This document shows positions 2,223-13,982 of a DNA stretch of 32,000 nucleotides, piece by piece (the first letter of the stretch is position 1; the number at the start of each line of letters is the position of its first letter). A program made the translations under genes and the position numbers. The notes under the pieces were generated by a model that searched no databases, had not been told where the DNA came from, and saw nothing but the letters and a program-made list of their open reading frames with translations. Origin of the DNA: Methanothermobacter marburgensis str. Marburg (GTDB lineage Archaea; Methanobacteriota; Methanobacteria; Methanobacteriales; Methanothermobacteraceae); assembly GCF_000145295.1 (NCBI RefSeq), contig NC_014408.1, forward strand, positions 1,020,001 to 1,052,000. Direction: 5' to 3'.

Positions 2223-2377
2223 AGAAAAACCCTAGCTAAACACCCCTGAGTAAGGCCACCCCTCAAGAGATAGAAGAAACAGAGCTGAAGAAAAACCCTA
2301 GCTAAACACCCCTGAGTAAGGCCACCCCTCAAGAGATAGAAGAAACAGAGCTGAAGAAAAACCCTGGCTAGACACCC
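2216..2377. repeat. 66-bp tandem repeat, 2 identical copies plus a partial third, filling a convergent intergenic spacer
   Basis: 2221..2286 and 2287..2352 are identical. 2353..2377 matches with 2 mismatches. The stop of 1992..2222 and the stop of 2368..2745 both lie inside repeat units. Confidence 0.95.
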
Positions 2378-2745
2378 ATCATTGAAGCTGCCTCGTTGAG
2401 GAGCTCATTGGCCTCATTTATCATGAGACCCGCATGGACAAAGTGGTCATCATCACCATCATCATAGAACCTCATGAACTCCCTCAGAGAATCCCTGTAA
2501 ATCCCCGCCGCCCTGAGGATCGTGCTGTGCGCACCCTCCAGTCCAGGATCCGGGACTTCAACCCTTATATCATTGAATATTTCACTTAAGGAACGTTCGA
2601 TATCCATAAATTCCTCTTTGAGTTCCTCAGGATTCTTCCCGCCCTTCAGAAGGAGAAGGTTACCCCTGAATCGGTTCACATTGTACCCTATCCTCTGGAC
2701 ATGCCTCTGCATACTTTCAGTGTACATAGGACCTCCCCATTTCAA
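2368..2745 (-). CDS. Hypothetical acidic helical protein
   Basis: 125-aa ORF from TTG 2745. An alternative ATG at 2727 is preceded by GGAGGT. I recognise no family. Confidence 0.5.
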   Translation of the reverse strand: MKWGGPMYTESMQRHVQRIGYNVNRFRGNLLLLKGGKNPEELKEEFMDIERSLSEIFNDIRVEVPDPGLEGAHSTILRAAGIYRDSLREFMRFYDDGDDDHFVHAGLMINEANELLNEAASMMGV

Positions 2746-2951
2746 TCTAAGTGTCCTTCTGAAAAATAGATTTCCATTTATTCCCTATATTCAAGTGTAC
2801 CATGTTCCTGCAGTAGTATCATACGGATGACGTGTATGAGAAGGAGGATATGTTGTGCCGTTCAATCTTATCCCCATCATTTATTTTTTTTGATCCATAT
2901 GAGTGTTATGGCGATTATTGTGCCGAACCATACAGCTGCAGGCACTATAGG

Positions 2952-3197
2952 CTATAAGGCCTGATAAATCCATCTCATTTTTAGGTATGTGAGGAAGGCG
3001 AGTGTTCCTGCGAAAACCATCACTGGAATCATTATGTCTATGATTTCATCGTCTGGGTCGCTTAGAACCGCCATCTTATCTAGCAGCCTATTATGATATC
3101 TGTCTGTTCTTCTCTGATACTGCAGAAAACTTGTACATGTTCTATACAAGAATATAACGAAATAAAATACACCTGAAAAACCAACTCCATAACTCAC
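2952..3197 (-). CDS. Small two-TM membrane protein at the distal end of the cassette locus
   Basis: 81-aa ORF with a GTG start and two hydrophobic segments. It starts 3 nt after the stop (3201..3203) of an unlisted 37-codon ORF, MTNTKLHKILFIDENPAPGAEDADYTIGRVGGYNGHY (about 3201..3314). Confidence 0.4.
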   Translation of the reverse strand: MSYGVGFSGVFYFVIFLYRTCTSFLQYQRRTDRYHNRLLDKMAVLSDPDDEIIDIMIPVMVFAGTLAFLTYLKMRWIYQAL

Positions 3198-3327
3198 ATG
3201 TCAGTAATGGCCGTTATACCCGCCCACCCGTCCAATAGTATAGTCTGCGTCCTCTGCTCCGGGCGCGGGATTTTCATCTATAAAGAGTATCTTATGTAAC
3301 TTTGTATTTGTCATAAAATGATTCTTG

Positions 3328-3344
3328 TTTACATAATGATTCTT
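3328..3344. repeat. 17-nt direct repeat tttacataatgattctt, left copy (right copy at 11433..11449)
   Basis: Exact 17/17 match read from the sequence. A degenerate third copy, tcataaaatgattctt, lies at 3311..3326. Confidence 0.8.
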
Positions 3345-3586
3345 GAGGAGTTTATTTTGTCATGCTTGAAAATAAAATATGTGGAGGCCGAGAAGAAAAC
3401 TTTGATAGTCGCTTTTTTGGGAACCTGATATCCCCTTTTGGGTTTGTGTAGTGTGGTGTTTGATCCACTTTCAGGTTATCTGGGAATGGGGGATGAGATT
3501 GGAGGCTGCTATTTGGAGGCTAGAAATGCCCTGAGCCTCTTTATTTTGGTATTGGCTTGTTGGTTTGTTGTTGGGTTTAACGCTCC

Positions 3587-3865
3587 TCAATGATATAGCC
3601 GAGAAAGGAGAAGTACACCTACTAGGAGCATTATAACAAAAAGTGTTTCGATCACACCTTTTTCCTCGCCTCTGAACACCTTCTTCGACAGAAAATAGAT
3701 TAGCAAAAACATATTTCCCAGTAAAAGACACGTTAACAATATAATAGGTAGTTCAGGCCTAGTAGGCAGTAAAGCCAACCTACTACCCGTAAACAGTAAA
3801 ACCAACAAAATTGTAAAACACGATAACGACCCCAAAAAATAAAAAAGCTTAGATGTATGCTGCAT
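3587..3865 (-). CDS. Small 3-TM membrane protein, type-2 partner (immunity-like) of orphan cassette 3849..4256
   Basis: 92-aa ORF. Its ATG overlaps the last codons of the cassette and is preceded by GAGGTG with a 5-nt spacer. It shares NMFLLIY.L.K...E......G with 4387..4629. Confidence 0.6.
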   Translation of the reverse strand: MQHTSKLFYFLGSLSCFTILLVLLFTGSRLALLPTRPELPIILLTCLLLGNMFLLIYFLSKKVFRGEEKGVIETLFVIMLLVGVLLLSRLYH

Positions 3866-4256
3866 CCTCCCACCTCAAACTACCATCAGGATTCTTCGGT
3901 ATTTCAATATAGTGTATACAATGATCCTCACCAACATAACTTCTCAACTCATAACCATAAATCCAGGTACGATGAATCGAAATATACTTCCAATATTCTT
4001 GGGGAAGATAATGAGTCCGTATCCTTAAAATCAAATCACCTTCAGCCACTATCACACTTATAAAACCCAAAGGACCCATAACAGCAGTGACACCGGCAAC
4101 AGTTGCAATATCTAATATACCATGGAAAACATCCTCTAGAATGCATGTTTGGTGTTCTATGATGAATTTTTTGATATCGTCTGTGATGTTTAGGAGGCCT
4201 GTGTAGGCTATTATTGTTGCATATGCTGCCATGTTGAGTCCTATAAATCCCTCCAC
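3849..4256 (-). CDS. Orphan C-terminal cassette D (5'-truncated copy of the 837-aa gene tail; variable window type 2); possibly a silent cassette
   Basis: 135 aa from GTG 4256, with no SD. 4141..4244 is the constant 5' block, 4011..4139 the variable window and 3852..4010 the constant tail. 3843..4013 matches 5513..5683 with 1 mismatch. Confidence 0.55.
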   Translation of the reverse strand: MEGFIGLNMAAYATIIAYTGLLNITDDIKKFIIEHQTCILEDVFHGILDIATVAGVTAVMGPLGFISVIVAEGDLILRIRTHYLPQEYWKYISIHRTWIYGYELRSYVGEDHCIHYIEIPKNPDGSLRWEDAAYI

Positions 4257-4386
4257 AAGAGCATAATTGAGGATATCCTGGAATGTAAATCCACATAGAC
4301 TTCAACATTATCATGAGTTGTGATATTTTTTATAGGTTTTTTCTAAGATTTTCCAGTTTTTTTGGGCGTGGGGGGCTGCTTTTCTT

Positions 4387-4629
4387 TTATGCAAGGCCAA
4401 AGAAGCCTATAATTACAAGCAAGCCTCCAAGTGCTCTGACAGTTTCATTTTCAGTTTTTCCCAACTCATCCTTGCCTAATAGGTAAATTAAGAGAAACAT
4501 GTTCACTATGTAAATGGAATAGACAATTAATTTGCTGATAATATAGGGGAAACGGAGACTAACCACAACCAATGCAGCAGTAAAATAAGAAAGGAAATAA
4601 CTAAAATAAAAAATGTACTTTACCATCAT
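4387..4629 (-). CDS. Small 3-TM membrane protein, type-2 partner (immunity-like) of orphan cassette 4643..5146
   Basis: 80-aa ORF. AGGAGG lies 5 nt before the ATGATG start, which is 13 nt after the cassette stop. It is a paralogue of 3587..3865. Confidence 0.65.
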   Translation of the reverse strand: MMVKYIFYFSYFLSYFTAALVVVSLRFPYIISKLIVYSIYIVNMFLLIYLLGKDELGKTENETVRALGGLLVIIGFFGLA

Positions 4630-4642
4630 ATCATCCTCCTAA

Positions 4643-5146
4643 TCAGATATACACTGCTTCATCCCATCTTAAAGTACCATCTGGGTTCTTTGGGATTTCA
4701 ATGTAGTGTATGCAATGGTCTTCGCCAACATAAATTTTAAGTTCATAACCATGCCGCCAAGTTCTATGGTAAGAAACATATTTCCAATATTCAGTTGGAA
4801 GATAATTCGTTCTTACATTCACAATTAAATCACCTTCTGCTAATAGTAGAGAAGCAATCGAAAAAATACCACTTGCCAAGGTGACACCTTCACTACTAAG
4901 CTCTTTTAAACTCCATATAAAAAGAATCCCATCTATAATGTCCCCTCCAATGCATGTTTGGTGTTCTATGATGAATTTTTTGATATCGTCTGTGATGTTT
5001 AGGAGGCCTGTGTAGGCTATTATTGTTGCATATGCTGCCATGTTGAGTCCTATGAGGCTGGCCCTACATAATCGAAAAAGAGGGTTTAGGATGGAAAGGT
5101 ACATGGAGGTTACAAAGCCCAATATAAGCCTTCTTAGTACTATCAT
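4643..5146 (-). CDS. Orphan C-terminal cassette C (variable window type 2) with a decayed, frameshifted 5' remnant
   Basis: 167-aa ORF. The constant block is 4950..5053, the variable window 4805..4948 (48 codons) and the constant tail 4646..4804. Upstream, 5100..5180 is homologous to 5985..6065 but carries a 1-nt insertion, so the first ~10 codons are out of the ancestral frame. Confidence 0.5.
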   Translation of the reverse strand: MIVLRRLILGFVTSMYLSILNPLFRLCRASLIGLNMAAYATIIAYTGLLNITDDIKKFIIEHQTCIGGDIIDGILFIWSLKELSSEGVTLASGIFSIASLLLAEGDLIVNVRTNYLPTEYWKYVSYHRTWRHGYELKIYVGEDHCIHYIEIPKNPDGTLRWDEAVYI

Positions 5147-5161
5147 CTAAACCTTCAAGGT

Positions 5162-5407
5162 TTACAGTGCTGTTGCCATCCAGGAAAAGGACGAGCCTAC
5201 TACAAAGGTTATGGCCATTAACCATCGTATTTCATCCTCTCTTTCCTTCAATTTGAATTGGAGCCAGAATAGAAGAGAAAAAATGAACAAGCCTAAAAGG
5301 TCTGCTATTGGAATCAAACCATTAAAATGTTTAATTCCAATGGAAAATAAAATAATATCGAGACAAAGAAGGGAATAAAGTATATCGAGCAAAGATTCAT
5401 AATCCAA
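5162..5407 (-). CDS. Small 3-TM membrane protein, type-1 partner (immunity-like)
   Basis: 81-aa ORF with a TTG start preceded by GGAGGTG (7-nt spacer). It shares LDYES and L(K/E)E(K/R)E.EIRW.M....VG with 8512..8787. Its last ~7 codons run into a remnant of cassette sequence. Confidence 0.6.
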   Translation of the reverse strand: MDYESLLDILYSLLCLDIILFSIGIKHFNGLIPIADLLGLFIFSLLFWLQFKLKEREDEIRWLMAITFVVGSSFSWMATAL

Positions 5408-5519
5408 GAAAAGACACCTCCTATATCATCCACTTAGACTACCCCATTAGGGTTCGTTTGAGAATTTTAGCCCCATATAGTTGCCGCGGATCGTAAAATA
5501 CGCCAAAAACTGAAAAAGC

Positions 5520-6167
5520 TTAGATGTATACTGCATCCTCCCACCTCAAACTACCATCAGGATTCTTCGGTATTTCAATATAGTGTATACAATGATCCTC
5601 ACCAACATAACTTCTCAACTCATAACCATAAATCCAGGTACGATGAATCGAAATATACTTCCAATATTCTTGGGGAAGATAATGATCTCTAAATGTAAGT
5701 ATGCCATCACCTATCCGCATACACCATCCAATTGGTTGAAATATTTCACCACCATACCTTACTAACACATATGCCAAAACCTGGATCAAACAGTGAGCAG
5801 TATCTTCTGAGATGTATGTTTGGTGTTCTATGATGAATTTTTTGATATCGTCTGTGATGTTTAGGAGGCCTGTGTAGGCTATTATTGTTGCATATGCTGC
5901 CATGTTGAGTCCTATAAATCCCTCCACAAGAGCATAATTGAGGATATCAACAAAAGCCATCGGACCTTCCAGGGCAATGTACATGGAGATTACAAGGCCA
6001 ATATAAGCCTTCTTAATACTATCATCTAAACCTTCAAGGTTTACTGTGCCATTACCATCCAAGAGCGAATCTAACTTTTCAGAGAATATTATAGTCTGGC
6101 CAAGTTCCCGAGCCCATTCTGTCTGTTGGTGGTAGTAGCAGTATGCTCCCATGAAAGCATAGATCAT
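5520..6167 (-). CDS. Orphan C-terminal cassette B (variable window type 1); the reading frame and homology continue upstream to 6300 without a start codon
   Basis: 215 aa from ATG 6167. The constant block is 5812..5915, the variable window 5682..5810 and the tail 5523..5681. The whole 5520..6300 stretch aligns to 8768..9551. Confidence 0.55.
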   Translation of the reverse strand: MIYAFMGAYCYYHQQTEWARELGQTIIFSEKLDSLLDGNGTVNLEGLDDSIKKAYIGLVISMYIALEGPMAFVDILNYALVEGFIGLNMAAYATIIAYTGLLNITDDIKKFIIEHQTYISEDTAHCLIQVLAYVLVRYGGEIFQPIGWCMRIGDGILTFRDHYLPQEYWKYISIHRTWIYGYELRSYVGEDHCIHYIEIPKNPDGSLRWEDAVYI

Positions 6168-6300
6168 GTCCCTTACTATCCCTGTTACATGGTCTATGAT
6201 GAGGTATCTTCCCTGCCCGTCACTGATAAGCGTGTAATTCTCGCTTTCGAGGATGTTTAGTGACCCGCCGTTGAGGAGTGTTAGGCCTATTCCTGTTGTG
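5520..6300 (-). repeat. 781-bp duplicate of the 3' end of the 837-aa gene (partner copy 8768..9551)
   Basis: Read by eye, 5916..6300 is almost identical to 9164..9551. The copies diverge in the variable window and homology ends abruptly at 6300/9551. Confidence 0.9.
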
Positions 6301-6327
6301 TGGAGGTTTTGATCCTGGGATTTGGGT

Positions 6328-7548
6328 TTATGGTTGATTTTTTTGGATGGTGAGTTCTTTCAGGGCTTTTTTGGCTTTTTTGTATTCTGGGTCTATTTTC
6401 AGGGATTTTTCGTAGCATTTTAGTGCTTCTTTGTGTTTGCCGAGTTTTTGTAGTGTTTTTCCTTGCATGTACCATAGTGTTTTGTTTTGCGGGTTTAGTT
6501 TGAGGGCTTTCTTGTAGCATTTCAGGGATTCCTCTGGTTCTTTGAGGTCTTCTAGGATTATGCCTTTCCATTTCCATGCATCAGCGAATTCTGGGTTTAT
6601 TTCAAGGGCTTTTTGAAAGCATTCCAGCGCATCCTCATATTTTCCAAGTTCTTCGAGGACTAGTCCTTTGTTGTTCCATGTTTTGTCGTCTTCTGGATCT
6701 ATTTCCAGGGCTTTTTCATAGCATTCCAGTGCCTCCTCATATCTCCCAAGTTCACTGAGGACTACTCCTTTATTGTTCCATGCTTCTGCAAGTTTGGGGT
6801 TTATCTGTAATGCTTTTTCATAGCATTCTAGTGACTCATCATATCTCCCAAGTTCATTGAAAACTAGTCCTTTGTTGTTCCAAGCTTTATCATCTTGTGG
6901 ATTTAATTGGAGAACTTTGTCATAACATTTTAATGCTTCTTCATATATCTTAAGGTTATGTAATGTTATTCCTTTAGTTCCCCAAGCTCTATAATTTTTT
7001 GGATTTAGCTCTATGGCTTTTTCGAAACATTTTAGTGCCTTTTTGTATTTTTTAAGGTAAATTAGAACGGAGCCTTTATTGTACCATGCATCTGCAAGTT
7101 TGGGGTTTATCTGTAATGCTTTTTCATAGCATTCTAGTGCCTCATCATATCTCCCAAGTTCTTTGAGGACTAGTGCTTTATTGTTCCATGCTCCTGCATA
7201 CTTTGGATTTATTTTTAGTGCTTTTTCATAGCATTCTAGTGCCTCATCATATCTCCCAAGTTCTTTGAGGACTAGTCCTTTGTTGTTCCATGCTTCTGCA
7301 AGTTTTGGATTGTTTTTGAGGATTTTTTCATAGCATTCTAAGGCTTTCTCTGGTCTTTTGAGTTTTAGTAGTGTTATTGCATTGTAGTGGAGGATTTCTG
7401 GGTTGTTTGGTCTTGCTTTGAGGGCTTTCCTGAATTCTTTGAGGGCTTCTTTGTATTTTCCCTGTTTTAGGCTTGATCGGCCCCCAGCAAGGTGCCATCC
7501 AGCCTTTCCCTCGGCTATCCAATCCTTTATTTTCTTAAGGGGGTTCAT
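6328..7548 (-). CDS. Tetratricopeptide (TPR) repeat protein, ~11 tandem 34-aa repeats; translationally coupled partner of orphan cassette E
   Basis: The repeated consensus is A(W)xNKGxxLxxLGRYDEALECYEKALxINP. Adjacent 102-bp DNA units are nearly identical (for example 7118..7190 vs 7220..7292). Its ATG overlaps the stop of 7545..8495 (ATGA). Confidence 0.85.
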   Translation of the reverse strand: MNPLKKIKDWIAEGKAGWHLAGGRSSLKQGKYKEALKEFRKALKARPNNPEILHYNAITLLKLKRPEKALECYEKILKNNPKLAEAWNNKGLVLKELGRYDEALECYEKALKINPKYAGAWNNKALVLKELGRYDEALECYEKALQINPKLADAWYNKGSVLIYLKKYKKALKCFEKAIELNPKNYRAWGTKGITLHNLKIYEEALKCYDKVLQLNPQDDKAWNNKGLVFNELGRYDESLECYEKALQINPKLAEAWNNKGVVLSELGRYEEALECYEKALEIDPEDDKTWNNKGLVLEELGKYEDALECFQKALEINPEFADAWKWKGIILEDLKEPEESLKCYKKALKLNPQNKTLWYMQGKTLQKLGKHKEALKCYEKSLKIDPEYKKAKKALKELTIQKNQP

Positions 7549-8495
7549 CCTCCAGCCTCTCTCAACTTCTTTTCTAGGTAGTTTTTGAATCCTAGTATGC
7601 AGGCTTCTATTGCTTCACGATTCTCATAGGCCAATAGGCTTCCAATAGCCATCCCAGTGCCTATTATAGTGCCTCCATGTTTTATGGCGCCCACAACATC
7701 CCCATCCTTTAAAGCCTCCTTGAACAGATCCCATTCATCCATCATGAGTTTACCTAAATTATTTATAGCCCTTCCTATATCGTCGGGATCGCCACCAACA
7801 CCACCACTGCTAATCACCCTTAGAGTATCTACGGCTTCTCTATACTCATTTATCGCTTGACTCCATTCGTCAGACTGTCTTGATAGTATTTCAAGATAGT
7901 TTTGTATTGGTTGTGTGTCTCCTGTTAGTAGTGTGTAGGCGATGAATGTTGGCAGACCAGCGGGTGAGAGTAACATCATGGCATCTTCGATGTATGGGAG
8001 CCACTCAGGATGTTCGATGAGGATATAAGCGACTATTGCAACAACTATTCCTATGCCAGCTGTCGCCGGCGCTGACAAGGCTCCTGCTTCGAGGATGGCG
8101 ACTTCAGCTCCTCCTTCGAAGCCGACGACTTCAGCTCCTGAAACACCAGCAAATCCAATGAACTTCCACAAACCGGTCTCATTCAGTAGTTCTTTTGCGA
8201 GGTTGGCTGCCCATTCTGTCTGCAGGTGGCTGAAACAATATGCCCCCATAACATTCTTAAAGATATTGACATCCCTCACTATCCCTGTTGCAGTGTCGAT
8301 GATCAGGTAGTCATTATCATAGTTTATTATGGTGTAGTTCCCAGCTTTTGTAATATTTAGTTTTTCTCCGTTCAGGAGCCTGTATGCTATGCTTGTGATC
8401 GCAGCACCTTCCATGATATCCCCTATATTGTCGAGGCTTCCATTGTATGGGAATAGGCGTTGCATTGAACTCTGAGGGGTTTGATGTCCCGACAA
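7545..8495 (-). CDS. Orphan cassette E: junction motif homologous to the 837-aa protein, followed by an unrelated glycine-zipper-rich hydrophobic C-terminal domain
   Basis: 316-aa ORF (TTG 8495, or ATG 8465; no SD). Residues ~36-96 (8208..8390) align to 9362..9541 of the full-length gene: LLNG..LNI...NYT.I....YLIID..TGIVRD....MGAYC..H.QTEWA. Downstream it is unrelated to the other cassettes (GFAGVSGAEVVGFEGGAEV..., GGTIIGTGMAIGSLLA). Confidence 0.55.
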   Translation of the reverse strand: MSGHQTPQSSMQRLFPYNGSLDNIGDIMEGAAITSIAYRLLNGEKLNITKAGNYTIINYDNDYLIIDTATGIVRDVNIFKNVMGAYCFSHLQTEWAANLAKELLNETGLWKFIGFAGVSGAEVVGFEGGAEVAILEAGALSAPATAGIGIVVAIVAYILIEHPEWLPYIEDAMMLLSPAGLPTFIAYTLLTGDTQPIQNYLEILSRQSDEWSQAINEYREAVDTLRVISSGGVGGDPDDIGRAINNLGKLMMDEWDLFKEALKDGDVVGAIKHGGTIIGTGMAIGSLLAYENREAIEACILGFKNYLEKKLREAGG

Positions 8496-8511
8496 TAATT
8501 AAATAGCCCTG

Positions 8512-8787
8512 TTATACCCCTGGAGATGCAATTAAACCCACTATAAGGAGCATTACCATCATCCATCTTATTTCATACTCTTTTTCCTTCAACTCGTAGT
8601 AGAGCCAGCATAAAAGGAGAAGAGTGAACAAGCCTAAAGGGGCTGCTATTAGGGACAAAACATCACAATGATACTTAAGCGCAAGAATACATAGGAACAT
8701 AACTATGCAGATAAGAGGATAAGCCCTCTTATACCAAGATTCATAATCCAATAAGATCCCCTCCACTTTAGATATATACTGCTTCAT
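8512..8787 (-). CDS. Small 3-TM membrane protein, type-1 partner (immunity-like) of the full-length 837-aa protein
   Basis: 91-aa ORF from an ATG inside the upstream gene. A more likely start is TTG 8751, preceded by GGAGGGG (6-nt spacer), which matches the start context of paralogue 5162..5407. Confidence 0.6.
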   Translation of the reverse strand: MKQYISKVEGILLDYESWYKRAYPLICIVMFLCILALKYHCDVLSLIAAPLGLFTLLLLCWLYYELKEKEYEIRWMMVMLLIVGLIASPGV

Positions 8788-9551
8788 CCCACCTCAAACT
8801 ACCATCAGGATTCTTCGGTATTTCAATATAGTGTATACAATGATCCTCACCAACATAACATCTCAACTCATAACCATCGTACCAGGAACGATGATACGAT
8901 ATATACTTCCAATACTCTTTTGGAAGATAATAATCTCTAAAGCTCAATATTTTATCACCAAACCACATACAAAACCCAATTGACCCTAATATCGCCCCAG
9001 CACCTCCTTTTGACACGTATCCAAAAACAGTAAGTAAAATATCTATAATGTCTTTTGGAATGTATGTTTGATGTTCTATGATAAATTCTTTGATATCGTC
9101 TGTGATGTTTAGGAGGCCTGTGTAGGCTATTATTGTTGCATATGCTGCCATGTTGAGTCCTATAAGTCCCTGACCCACAAGAGCATAATTGAGGATATCA
9201 ACGAAAGCCATTGGACCTTCCAGGGCAATGTACATGGAGATTACAAGGCCAATATAGGCCTTCTTGATACTATCATCTAAACCTTCAAGGTTTACTGTGC
9301 CATTACCATCCAAGAGCGAATCTAACTTTTCAGAGAATATTATGGCTTGGCCAAGTTCCCGGGCCCATTCTGTCTGTTGGTGGTAGTAGCAGTATGCTCC
9401 CATGAAAGCATAGATCATGTCCCTTACTATCCCTGTTACATGGTCTATGATGAGGTATCTTCCCTGCCCGTCACTGATAAGCGTGTAATTCTCGCTTTCG
9501 AGGATGTTTAGTGACCCGCCGTTGAGGAGTGTTAGGCCTATTCCTGTTGTG
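8768..9551 (-). repeat. 784-bp master copy of the segment duplicated at 5520..6300
   Basis: See the entry for 5520..6300. The two copies differ in length by one codon. Confidence 0.9.
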
Positions 9552-11281
9552 GGCGCGCTTGTGGGGTCTGATCCTGGGAAGAGGGCCTCCATCACATAGT
9601 ATTCTATTGGATTTATAGCTGATGTTCTCGCATAATTGAATGCTTTAATGTTTTCAGGTGTGCCTTCTGCTTTCACGGCCATGTTGTGGTTGCATTCGAG
9701 GCTTATCCATGTTCCGAGGGCGTGGTCTCCTGCTGAGACCATCACTGGCATGGTCCTGGTCCATGTTACATTATAGCGCGTGGCTGCTTCTTCTGCGATG
9801 AGATCGTGGAGGTATATTACTTCAAGGCCTGTTAGGAATGTTCCGTAGGCTGCCTTTAATGGTCCGGGTTCGTATGTCCTGTTTAGCCACTTTTGTAATG
9901 TCTGGTTTGTTATCTTCCCTGTGGCGAGGGTGTAGGTTATGATGGCGTCGTAGTTGCTAGCCTCCCAGATGAGAGTGTCGTTTATTATGATATTGGGTCC
10001 TGTTTCTCCTGGTGGGTGTATGTATTGGCCGTTTGTGTAGAGTAGGAGGAGTGTTCTTGTTGATTTGTTCCCTGGGAATGTTATATTGGCTATTGTCACC
10101 TTTTCCTCGCCGGGATACTCCACACTGACCTGTAAAGGGTCTATGCACTTGTTATAGTTTGTGAGTATGAATGTCTTTTCTGCCTGGGTTAAATTGAAGT
10201 TGTTGAGATATTCATTCACTTGAGGTTCTGCTCCGAGTTTTGTGTAAATTTCTATGAGTCTGTTCAGGCCAGCTATGACTTGCCAGACTATTTCTCTTTG
10301 ACTCTGGCTGTTAGCCTGGTAGAATGGGTTAGTGACCTCGGCTAGTTTGTATGCTATGCCATCCTCCACAAGGAATATTGTTTCATTGAATAGGCCCGAA
10401 GCTATAGCCCCTATACTAATCCATTTAACCGTGTCATTGAGCGGAATTTTAAATGTTAAATTTAGGGGCTTCCCAGAGGATGTTGCCGTGGAATTAACAT
10501 GGACCGTTGCAAGCATAACCTCCAATGTCATAGTCTTCGTGTCTGTTATGCCATAGGCTTGGATTGTTAGGGTTGCTTTGTAGGTTCCTGGTTTGTAGGC
10601 GTGTACTGGATTCTTCTGGGTGCTTGTGCTTTGGTCTCCGAAGTCCCATTTGTAGTATTGTATTGTCCCTGTACTTTTATCCTGGAACTGGACATTATAG
10701 CCTTGTATTGTGTAGGTGTAGTCTGCCCTTGGCCTTGTCAGGGTTCCGGCCTTACCTGTAACATATTTTACTGTTACATGGTTTGGTAGTCTTCCTGTGC
10801 TGTTGTAGAAGTTTATTATCCTTGCATTGGCATATATTAGGCTTTCTGGGCGGATTTGTCCGATGGCTGTGCTGGCATAATTCGGCGACCTCCCATAGGA
10901 TTCCATGAAAGCCTTAACATTCTTTGCCACCTGCAGGTATCCTGCTTTTTGGAGTGTTCCTGTTCCTGTTCCACTTGGACTGGGCGGGGAGGCCATACTA
11001 TTGAATGACAAGCCAACTCTCCTAGCCTGATCGAGGTTTATGATGGTTGTGGATGAGGCGTAGAGGTAGTCGTCTGCCGACACATTCTTACCGTTAATCA
11101 CAACCTGTGATGGTATTTTTTCATGTTGTGCGGTGTAATTTCCGATCAGCTTTGAAGCGTCACAAATCTCATTATAGGATAAACTCACAGCTGAAGAACT
11201 GCCCAGAAAACAGAAAAAGGACAGGATCGCCAGAAAAAACAACAACCTCCTCACAGCCACCACCATAATATGATAACACAT
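8768..11281 (-). CDS. Full-length secreted wall-binding protein: signal peptide, 2 pseudomurein-binding-like repeats, PKD domain, ~300-aa unknown region, junction motif, variable C-terminal module (type 1)
   Basis: 837-aa ORF. The signal-like N-terminus is (MCYHI)MVVAVRRLLFFLAILSFFCFLGSSSA. The PKD signature is WDFGDQSTSTQKNPVHAYKPGTYKATLTI. The segments KIPSQVVINGKNVSADDYLY and GRLPNHVTV resemble pseudomurein-binding repeats (from memory). About 15 N-x-S/T sequons are present. The variable window is 8930..9058. Confidence 0.85.
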   Translation of the reverse strand: MCYHIMVVAVRRLLFFLAILSFFCFLGSSSAVSLSYNEICDASKLIGNYTAQHEKIPSQVVINGKNVSADDYLYASSTTIINLDQARRVGLSFNSMASPPSPSGTGTGTLQKAGYLQVAKNVKAFMESYGRSPNYASTAIGQIRPESLIYANARIINFYNSTGRLPNHVTVKYVTGKAGTLTRPRADYTYTIQGYNVQFQDKSTGTIQYYKWDFGDQSTSTQKNPVHAYKPGTYKATLTIQAYGITDTKTMTLEVMLATVHVNSTATSSGKPLNLTFKIPLNDTVKWISIGAIASGLFNETIFLVEDGIAYKLAEVTNPFYQANSQSQREIVWQVIAGLNRLIEIYTKLGAEPQVNEYLNNFNLTQAEKTFILTNYNKCIDPLQVSVEYPGEEKVTIANITFPGNKSTRTLLLLYTNGQYIHPPGETGPNIIINDTLIWEASNYDAIITYTLATGKITNQTLQKWLNRTYEPGPLKAAYGTFLTGLEVIYLHDLIAEEAATRYNVTWTRTMPVMVSAGDHALGTWISLECNHNMAVKAEGTPENIKAFNYARTSAINPIEYYVMEALFPGSDPTSAPTTGIGLTLLNGGSLNILESENYTLISDGQGRYLIIDHVTGIVRDMIYAFMGAYCYYHQQTEWARELGQAIIFSEKLDSLLDGNGTVNLEGLDDSIKKAYIGLVISMYIALEGPMAFVDILNYALVGQGLIGLNMAAYATIIAYTGLLNITDDIKEFIIEHQTYIPKDIIDILLTVFGYVSKGGAGAILGSIGFCMWFGDKILSFRDYYLPKEYWKYISYHRSWYDGYELRCYVGEDHCIHYIEIPKNPDGSLRWDEAVYI

Positions 11282-11316
11282 TATAGTATAAAAAGATTAC
11301 TATCTCTTTTAGGGGC

Positions 11317-12992: not shown

Positions 12993-13982
12993 ATGAATTC
13001 AGAAACCCCAGCAGAGATGATGGAGGATCTTGAACCCCTTAGACTCAGATTCAGAGAACCATCACCTGAAACAAAAAGAGCCATCTGCAAAGCCGCACTC
13101 TACAGGGAAATACCAGACCCTGAAAAGAAAATCAGGAGGATCACAGGACACAGATACGCAAGACTCCTCAGCAGCGGGAATGCCGCAATCCTCCTCACTG
13201 TATCCCGGCTCGATGGTCCCATCCTCGTGCCTGACCAGGGCGGATGGCGGGGCTTTAAGAGGATACCTGAGATCCTTGGCAGGGAGGTTTTCACGGTCAA
13301 GACAGAGATGGGAATCATTGACCCTGAAGTCCTGGAATCACGTCTTGAAGATACAGGGGCCAGGGCAGTTTTTGTCACAAGCTTCGCCGGTTATACAGCG
13401 GAGCAACCCATCGCAGAACTCTCAGATATCTGCAGATCCCATGATGCAATCCTGGTTGAGGACGCATCCGGGAGCGTCTCTGACCCCCTTGAAAGGTTAT
13501 GCAATGGTAAAAAAAGTCACATTATAATTGCATCCACTGGCTCTCCAAAAACCGTTAACGCGGGTGGTGGCGGGTTCATCTCAACCTCCATTCCAGAGTT
13601 TGTGCAGCAGGACATGCTACTATCCGCCCTCAAGGCGGATCCATATGTGAGGGCTGCCGTTGCCGCCGAACTTGATGTCGCCAGGAGGAACCTCACAGAG
13701 ACCCTCAGGGCATGCAGTTACCTCAAAGAAAAACTTGAGGGGGCATTCCACCCTGAAAAAAGAGGTATAAATGTTATAATCCCATCCAGCACCCCCAGGG
13801 AGGATGTTAAAACTCTGAGAAAACTTATAACAGCAGATGGCAGGAGCATATTCACAGCATGCCCCTCACCTGACAGGATACTTGAGAGTGCAGTTGCAGT
13901 GGAGGTTAAGAACCTGGATGTGGGATGCCTCACCCATGAGAACCTTGAGAGGATGGCGGAGATCATCTCCTCTGTTATATGA
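12993..13982 (+). CDS. PLP-dependent-transferase-fold protein (DegT/SelA-like), function unknown
   Basis: ATG 12993 is preceded by GGTGAT. The listed 12846 start would overlap nreA. ILVEDASGS plus STGSPKTVNAGGGGFI resemble the Asp and Schiff-base Lys regions of fold-type I enzymes. Confidence 0.4.
   Translation: MNSETPAEMMEDLEPLRLRFREPSPETKRAICKAALYREIPDPEKKIRRITGHRYARLLSSGNAAILLTVSRLDGPILVPDQGGWRGFKRIPEILGREVFTVKTEMGIIDPEVLESRLEDTGARAVFVTSFAGYTAEQPIAELSDICRSHDAILVEDASGSVSDPLERLCNGKKSHIIIASTGSPKTVNAGGGGFISTSIPEFVQQDMLLSALKADPYVRAAVAAELDVARRNLTETLRACSYLKEKLEGAFHPEKRGINVIIPSSTPREDVKTLRKLITADGRSIFTACPSPDRILESAVAVEVKNLDVGCLTHENLERMAEIISSVI

Follow-up and report, generated by a model that had tools for sequence, protein, structure and literature searches.

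Whether a gene directly behind a variable protein terminus is the dedicated partner of that terminus or only its neighbor, and what such a partner might do, is the question raised by a locus of the archaeon Methanothermobacter marburgensis str. Marburg. The locus lies within 32,000 nucleotides (nt) of contig NC_014408.1 (positions 1,020,001 to 1,052,000), which we call the window and whose own numbering is used below; all genes of the locus are on the minus strand. They encode, in this order, a protein of 837 amino acids (aa; 8768..11281), a small membrane protein, an open reading frame (ORF) of 316 aa (7545..8495), a tetratricopeptide repeat (TPR) protein of 406 aa (6328..7548), and three fragments resembling the C-terminus of the 837-aa protein, each with its own partner gene. 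We refer to the C-terminal domain behind a conserved junction as the tip, to that of the 837-aa main protein as A-type, and to that of the 316-aa ORF, which we call the orphan, as B-type. A first-pass annotation of the sequence had proposed that the TPR protein occupies the position held in the other modules by small transmembrane (TM) proteins and is the cognate partner of the B tip. Judging from the comparison of related loci, we conclude that the TPR protein is a tip-specific cognate partner of the B type and not a chance neighbor; this conclusion concerns the linkage, not an immunity function.

TPR Genes Follow One Tip Type

The comparison was made with 51 unique complete tips from ~40 loci, which formed at least nine groups on clustering. 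The B type is the largest group (25 of the 66 representative proteins having a full tip), and its members have in common two hydrophobic segments after the junction, a variable polar middle, and a C-terminal module composed of an acidic GDxDD motif, an amphipathic helix, a K.GD motif, and a Gly-rich hydrophobic helix. A TPR gene was found directly after all 23 intact tips with this module, starting -26 to +314 nt from the stop codon of the tip and within 100 nt in 21 of them, while none of the 24 tips of other recognizable types, which do not have the module, was followed by one (Fisher's exact p = 7e-11 without correction for shared ancestry, a value that overstates the evidence because the loci are not phylogenetically independent). 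Where the gene downstream of a non-B tip was visible, it was an ORF with 2–7 TM segments in 22 of 23 cases and a 90-aa ORF without TM segments in the other. The position of the TPR gene and its co-occurrence with the tip type in other genomes thus agree with what the first-pass annotation had proposed.

The association spans three genera, although the B tips are only 13–40% identical to one another. A B tip followed by a TPR gene was found, for example, in M. thermautotrophicus CP064337 (504 aa), in Methanobacterium alcaliphilum (498 aa), and in several metagenome-assembled genomes (MAGs), i.e., a Methanothermobacter MAG (215 aa), two further MAGs (266 aa), and an ENA MAG (261 aa). A TPR partner is also present behind two divergent singleton tips that end in a similar GD...hydrophobic stretch. 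Two members of the B cluster with 4-TM partners (L013|2-1543 and L040|1314-2369) seemed to be exceptions, but both are without the C-terminal module and are linked to the cluster via the middle segment only, and we therefore regard them as a different tip type. Distances among tips and among TPR partners co-vary (Mantel r = 0.34, p = 2e-4), also when the scaffold is controlled for (partial r = 0.24, p 4e-4).

It might be supposed that the TPR gene is a mere neighbor and that the adjacency and the overlap with the tip are accidental, since consensus-type TPR proteins are common in Methanobacteriaceae and 73 ORFs in the fetched loci match the TPR protein of the window. The specificity for tip type, held across genera and very divergent tips, speaks against this supposition, as do the loci in which the two genes share one fate: contig L002 has lost the TPR gene along with the 3' half of the tip, and contigs L047 and L050 retain both genes. 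We consider the mere-neighbor explanation effectively excluded by these comparisons.

In the window, the boundary of the two genes reads GGA GGA TGA and, in the +1 frame, ATG AAC CCC, so that stop and start overlap in an ATGA at 7545..7548, as the first-pass annotation had noted and as direct reading of the sequence confirms. The related contig L050 has the same 4-nt ATGA overlap beside a truncated window-type tip. A ribosome-binding-type sequence (GAGAGG/GGAGG) lies upstream of the TPR ATG. The 406-aa protein, delimited by Pfam, hydropathy, the DNA repeats, and direct reading, consists of 11 TPR units (Pfam TPR_1, E 1e-125) with a DNA period of 102 nt, and neither a signal peptide nor a TM segment was found in it by hydropathy. 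The eleven 102-nt units (6374-7449, minus strand) are 60–75% identical in DNA. Between the TPR proteins of L047 and the window, which are 72.6% identical overall, the terminal repeats are conserved and the central repeats reshuffled.

The TPR partners form a recognizable family of 160–550 aa and 4–14 repeats, with a basic N-terminus (MGLFxxFKKKSL), a C-terminal cap (LDPDFExAKKAKEEILS), and no signal peptides. In one subtype, a genuine TM helix is found at the N-terminus (L003 9853-10500; L047 8353-8976; L002 4292-4555), and the basic MGLFxxFKKKSL peptide on most of the others resembles amphipathic membrane-targeting helices; the presence of one or the other hints that the TPR partners act at the inner face of the membrane.

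The Orphan ORF and the Exchange of Tips at the Junction

The orphan, which begins with TTG, matched the main protein in BLASTP from residues 11–201 to residues 564–734 (E 9e-17). The significant part of this match consists of a pre-junction remnant (48% identity over residues 11–83) and the junction, GAYCFSHLQTEWAA in the orphan versus GAYCYYHQQTEWAR in the main protein. On the DNA, the remnant (residues 11–84, placed by BLASTP, alignment, and identities) occupies 8244..8465, and the junction core GAYCFSHLQTEWAA (residues 84–97, placed by BLASTP) occupies 8205..8246; the 41-nt core is 80% identical to that of the main gene (family D8). The B tip itself (219 aa, residues 98–316, 7548..8204) was delimited by hydropathy, alignments, a ctm hidden Markov model (HMM), and an AlphaFold2 (AF2) model, and is not significantly similar to the main A tip when the two are compared alone (E 0.48). 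This bears out the earlier statement that an unrelated domain of ~220 aa follows a junction common to both proteins. A distant membrane module common to A and B tips, which the BLASTP alignment running ~100 residues past the junction might have indicated, was rejected, the tips alone giving E 0.48–4.7.

In full-length relatives, homology to the orphan begins exactly at its Met11 (MQRLFP), and a Shine-Dalgarno-like sequence was found neither before the TTG nor before the Met11 ATG. We therefore regard the 316-aa ORF as a 5'-truncated displaced orphan that is probably not an independently translated gene. No signal peptide was found on it.

The main protein (8768..11281, defined by the ORF list, Pfam, hydropathy, and the PRE HMM) begins with a signal-peptide-like hydrophobic segment at residues 5–23, followed by GSSSA. 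Its further order is three pseudomurein-binding repeats (Pfam PMBR, 5e-27), a PKD domain (PKD_4, 1.5e-12), a large unannotated region, a pre-junction domain, the junction, and the A-type tip ending in YVGEDHCIHYIEIPKNPDGSLRWDEAVYI. The carrier of a polymorphic toxin system is expected to be large and secreted, with an N-terminal region for export or anchoring, and the hydrophobic segment, the three PMBR, and the PKD domain agree with this. The pre-junction domain and the junction core behind which tips swap lie at 9335..9874 according to the PRE HMM and invariant alignment columns, the HMM match covering residues 475–649 of the main stop-to-stop ORF, which starts five codons upstream of the ATG. 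The main-gene junction core, GAYCYYHQQTEWA, lies at about 9359-9400, and the 41-nt core is repeated at 6112-6152, 8209-8249, and 9363-9403. Around it, 300 nt of the main gene (9175-9474) are 97% identical to 5924-6223 in the first A-type orphan, and this stretch of near-identity across the junction would be a ready substrate for recombination.

The pre-junction domain of ~180 residues is common to all members of the family in our alignment. Its invariant residues are His-Asp, Asn-x-Thr-Trp-x-Arg, Thr-Gly..Asp, and a Cys located exactly at the point of tip exchange, within the junction motif GAYC..QTEWA. In the homolog P0006, the domain (residues 40–260) was modeled by AF2 from a 125-sequence alignment at a predicted local distance difference test score (pLDDT) of >90. 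A Foldseek search of the PDB with the domain model gave no match (best E 0.26), no family was found for the domain in Pfam (E<=10), NCBIfam, or PADLOC, and it has no VENN, PT-TG, or HINT-type motif. The invariant motifs, with the Cys at the exchange point, suggest, speculatively, an autoprocessing or pre-toxin module, and a fold confidently predicted with no solved relative makes the domain a candidate for a new module of either kind.

Relatives of this scaffold were collected by a word-index search (11 relatives), by a scan of species-representative genomes (39 loci, essentially all in Methanobacterium, Methanobrevibacter, or Methanothermobacter), and by running an HMM against the full set of 1.84 billion representatives, which gave 313 clusters at 50% identity. 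On these searches, the scaffold family is confined to Methanobacteriaceae. The homologs and the pseudomurein-binding repeats by themselves also assign the window to this family, and most likely to Methanothermobacter. Contigs L009, L021, L024, L036, L037, and L044 were binned in bacterial MAGs (Anaerolineales, Atribacter, Bacteroidota, and Phycisphaerales); they are most likely mis-binned archaeal contigs, given their pseudomurein-binding context and their near-identity to Methanobacterium contigs.

In protein P0027, encoded on the metagenomic contig L047, the 380 aa that precede the junction match the main protein at 98.9% identity, and yet the tip is B-type. P0009, with a 79% identical scaffold, likewise has a B-type tip in place of the A-type. 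Near-identical scaffolds with different tips identify the junction, at the level of sequence, as the site where strains swap their tips. The presence of two unrelated tips behind the same junction had earlier been taken as the mark of a polymorphic system, and P0027 is a direct instance of it. No B tip on a foreign scaffold was found among the 150 matches listed from a profile search of the 1.84 billion representatives, in which the profile kept pre-junction columns and mostly family members were thus recovered.

Possible Function of the B Tip and Its TPR Partner

We favor, with a rough probability of 0.55, the reading that the B cassette was displaced from the main gene, that the TPR protein is its cognate partner, and that the tip would act as a membrane-inserting effector against which the TPR protein confers immunity; the toxin and immunity functions in this reading are ones that we only infer. 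The 837-aa protein would be a Sec-exported, pseudomurein-binding carrier with an exchangeable C-terminal tip, and each tip type is inherited as a cassette with the gene directly downstream, which the comparison of loci shows for the B tip and its cytoplasmic TPR protein. An incoming A-type cassette would have displaced the B cassette (7545-8495 plus 6328-7548) from its place behind the main-gene junction, at the 3' end, so that it now lies between the active module and the three A-type orphans as an orphan truncated at its 5' end. Handed to neighboring cells on contact, the B tip would insert into the membrane, where the cytoplasmic TPR protein, whose specificity would be for the C-terminal module (acidic GDxDD, amphipathic helix, and Gly-rich hydrophobic helix), may seize whatever portion of the tip is accessible at the cytoplasmic face and so neutralize it. 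The TPR protein would thereby do the immunity job that is done within the membrane by small multi-TM proteins for the other tips. The orphan tip is probably silent, whereas the orphan TPR gene, having a ribosome-binding site of its own, is probably still expressed and would protect against neighbors armed with a B tip.

The fate of the cassettes in related loci is consistent with this reading. Where window-type tips are truncated, to 316, 207, and 154 aa, the window-type TPR gene next to them is still intact, the pattern expected of retained orphan immunity genes. Several tip and TPR modules stand in arrays (L007, L014, and L047), and extra tandem TPR genes are found behind tips in L004, L007, and L029.

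These observations also bear on whether the TPR protein is instead a chaperone, or an export or insertion factor, that serves the hydrophobic B tip in the producing cell. TPR class II chaperones serve the translocators of type III secretion, and Eag chaperones serve TM-containing effectors of type VI secretion. Like LcrH/SycD and IpgC (NCBIfam TIGR02552), the TPR protein is cytoplasmic and encoded beside a hydrophobic, putatively membrane-inserting partner, to which it is translationally coupled, and it scores 132 with the LcrH/SycD model against a cut-off of 104.8 bits. This model passes only as a generic TPR match, alongside others such as PilW and MamA, and the 406-aa protein with its 11 repeats is unlike the ~3 TPR and ~150 aa of a class II chaperone encoded in a type III secretion operon; the TPR partners as a family, at 160–550 aa and up to 14 repeats, are far longer. 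In contrast to the LcrH/SycD and IpgC cases, there is no type III secretion here, and the carrier has a Sec-type signal peptide, so that its C-terminus would leave the ribosome long after export had begun. One would not expect a chaperone to be maintained once its client gene is silent, whereas intact TPR genes with ribosome-binding sites of their own stand beside truncated and probably untranslated tips, and extra copies pile up behind tips as orphan immunity genes do. Immunity fits these last two observations better than chaperoning, and we think a chaperone role rather improbable.

After the junction, the B tip has a Gly/Ala-rich hydrophobic region with a strong TM-like helix at residues 142–160 and a weaker hydrophobic helix at 172–190, then a polar helical stretch, and finally the conserved C-terminal module (about residues 231–316; ctm HMM, 4e-23) with GGDPDD, the amphipathic helix, K.GD, the Gly-rich hydrophobic helix, and a basic tail. 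The Gly-rich helix of the module (~271–290) is below the TM threshold used. Hydrophobic Gly/Ala-rich stretches had been described in the first-pass annotation and are indeed present. The GxxxG spacing attributed to them there, on which its glycine-zipper argument was built, is no commoner than composition predicts (5 observed versus 3.5 expected, P=0.26); GxxxGxxxG does not occur in the B tip, two tandem GxxxG are found only in the last hydrophobic helix (GTIIGTGMAIGSLLA), and no glycine-zipper family was matched.

The lack of a GxxxG excess is one of several points that weigh against an effector and immunity pair. No toxin, pore-forming, or glycine-zipper family was found for the tip in Pfam (E<=10), NCBIfam, PADLOC, or PDB profiles, and when the tip alignment was compared with PDB sequence profiles, only noise came back (best E 0.075, a collagenase). 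The AF2 model of the 316-aa ORF, from a 10-sequence alignment, is all-helical but of low confidence (pLDDT 41.8, too low for fold comparison); in the model of the homolog P0006, only the helical hairpin of the C-terminal module is confident within the tip (pLDDT 73–88), and Foldseek found nothing in the PDB with this model (best E 0.26). The positive-inside signal of the tip is weak. The dependence among loci that inflates the Fisher's exact test has to be counted here as well. We know of no precedent for a cytoplasmic immunity protein against a membrane-acting toxin, and C-terminal hydrophobic helices of a Sec-exported protein could be a simple membrane anchor. Finally, no description of this system was found in the literature searched, including papers on adhesin-like proteins of Methanobacteriales; the 2019 survey of archaeal polymorphic toxins was outside the scope of that search, so that a prior description is possible.

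The anchor interpretation leads to the most serious competitor, in which the tips are polymorphic anchors or self-recognition determinants and their partners serve anchoring, signaling, or kin recognition, no cell being killed. The scaffold, with PMBR and PKD domains and with beta-helix and Ig-like adhesin-type domains in relatives, would suit such a role, the two or three hydrophobic helices of the tip are placed like a C-terminal anchor, and no toxin domain was detected in the tip; a cytoplasmic TPR protein could dock on a cytoplasmic loop or tail. A similar ambiguity is conceded in the description of the Thermococcales VARTIG modules (PMC8416519). Orphan arrays with intact partners and the wholesale replacement of tips are typical of conflict systems, although they are compatible with identity determinants too. 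We regard a purely non-lethal identity or adhesion role as unlikely, and the effector and immunity reading as preferable.

More broadly, the family may represent contact-dependent competition among pseudomurein-walled methanogens by means of a family-specific polymorphic effector, with membrane-inserting tips countered by small integral-membrane proteins in most types or, for ~40% of tips, by a membrane-tethered cytoplasmic TPR solenoid that grips the part of the tip exposed at the inner face. We put forward this general picture tentatively and with the odds somewhat against it.

Comparison with Known Systems

The framework of polymorphic toxin systems was reportedly set out by Zhang et al. 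in 2012, and the same is said to have been done for archaea by Makarova et al. in 2019. WapA/WapI of Bacillus subtilis is a wall-bound, Sec-exported polymorphic carrier with its immunity protein, and orphan arrays are known for CdiA-CT/CdiI and Rhs. The methanogen locus resembles the WapA, CdiA-CT, and Rhs systems in its signal peptide, wall-binding repeats, long extracellular scaffold, and conserved pre-tip junction, and also in its unrelated tips swapped between strains, the tip-specific downstream gene, and the arrays of 5'-truncated orphan tips with partners sharing the junction. As judged from sequence, it has every structural feature of a polymorphic toxin system that we looked for. It differs from these systems in that the wall module is a pseudomurein-binding repeat, that the pre-junction fold has no relative in the PDB, and that the tips are hydrophobic and helical, without a recognizable enzymatic toxin domain, and only putatively toxic. 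Membership of the contact-dependent inhibition class (CdiB/CdiA/CdiI) is not indicated, since two-partner secretion, FHA, and VENN features were not found by Pfam and the junction is GAYC..QTEWA instead.

Membrane-targeting effectors with integral-membrane immunity proteins are exemplified by CdiA-CT EC93/CdiI and the pore-forming colicins. The A-type and other non-B tips, followed by 2–7-TM proteins, are similar in this respect, and the B tip shares the hydrophobic character. Unlike those effectors, the B tip has as its partner a repeat protein that is soluble and cytoplasmic, and not a TM protein.

The closest parallel for the TPR partner is the bacterial polymorphic toxin system S8-PTS, in which the TPR immunity families TPR-Imm1-4 have been described (PMC9424270). 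There too, the gene directly behind a polymorphic C-terminal domain encodes a TPR solenoid, which is the predicted cognate neutralizer of that domain. The suggestion that a TPR protein would be a distinct type of partner has thus to be qualified, because such immunity families were already described and the category is not wholly new. Going by the description of its families, S8-PTS is bacterial and its toxin domains are soluble, such as BECR-fold RNases, whereas the present locus is archaeal, has a membrane-type tip, and has a long TPR partner (4–14 repeats) whose N-terminus bears a conserved basic peptide or a TM anchor.

Among archaea, the VARTIG modules of Thermococcales are toxin-system-like loci without an identifiable toxin (PMC8416519). 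They are similar to the locus described here in having a large hypervariable surface protein and variable downstream genes for membrane proteins, but they belong to another lineage and differ in domains and junction, and no TPR partner class was reported for them.

Compared with these systems, the new points are a pseudomurein-specific archaeal carrier, a junction and pre-junction domain that, in the model, are confidently predicted without a PDB relative, the pairing of a hydrophobic tip with a long cytoplasmic TPR protein, and a strict TM-or-TPR dichotomy within one family.

Antagonism and kin discrimination in archaea have, to our knowledge, hardly been explored by experiment. None of the predicted archaeal polymorphic toxin systems has been validated (PMC8416519). 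This family, in which several unrelated tips stand behind a single conserved junction and the partner is strictly either a TM or a TPR protein, offers a clean testable case in organisms relevant to the gut, the rumen, and biogas. Methanothermobacter is genetically tractable. If the TPR proteins are immunity factors, they would exemplify how a hydrophobic effector can be neutralized by a soluble repeat protein; otherwise, the strict linkage would still indicate an unknown cytoplasmic connection of methanogen surface proteins. Should the contact-dependent reading be true, the family would provide a new mechanism of immunity to a membrane-acting toxin and, for methanogenic archaea, the first tractable system of contact-dependent inhibition.

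Organization of the Variable Island

The cassette genes have a GC content of 0.36–0.45 versus ~0.50 for their flanks, and the whole island (2300-11300 of the window) is likewise below the ~0.50 of the flanking housekeeping genes; such a low GC content is consistent with a horizontally exchanged variable island. The flanks encode GMP synthase and MsrB on one side, and Nre, an isopropylmalate/homocitrate synthase, and PAN on the other, and no secretion-system genes were found among these housekeeping genes of the window. At the distal end of the island is a 125-aa ORF (2368-2745, minus strand) with no Pfam match.

Besides the B cassette, the window has three A-type orphan cassettes of tip and partner that share the junction sequence. 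The first (5520..6359; annotated ATG ORF of 215 aa) is 82% identical to the main tip, and its stop-to-stop frame holds pre-junction homology upstream of the annotated ATG; its small TM partner of 81 aa (5162..5407; hydropathy) is 42% identical to the 91-aa partner of the main tip. The second (4643..5146, 167 aa) and third (3849..4256, 135 aa) were recognized from the ORF list by homology to the main-gene C-terminus, and are accompanied by small TM partners of 80 aa (4387..4629) and 92 aa (3587..3865), respectively, identified from the ORF list and hydropathy.

Across 3587-6359 (minus strand), the three A-type orphans and the main A tip are near-identical in their N- and C-terminal parts (the latter ending in YVGEDHCIHYIEIPKNPDGSLRW). 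The A-type tips differ mainly in an internal hydrophobic patch of ~40 residues, and their small TM partners are only 18–42% identical. Variation confined to the patch together with such strongly diverged partners may mean that A-type specificity resides in this internal segment rather than at the extreme C-terminus.

The small partner of the main A tip (8512..8787, minus strand; 91 aa as listed, with three hydrophobic segments by the ORF list and hydropathy) overlaps the end of the main gene (8751-8787) as listed. Its real start is probably the TTG at 8751, which would yield 79 aa, as suggested by alignment with the initial M of the 81-aa paralog and by a GGAGGGG sequence 6 nt upstream. Elsewhere in the family, a tip class related to the L001 orphan 13363-13773 (L011, L013, L019, L033, L042, and L044) is followed by 5–7-TM proteins of 210–294 aa and not by proteins of 80–120 aa, which suggests that these larger proteins are a third class of partner.

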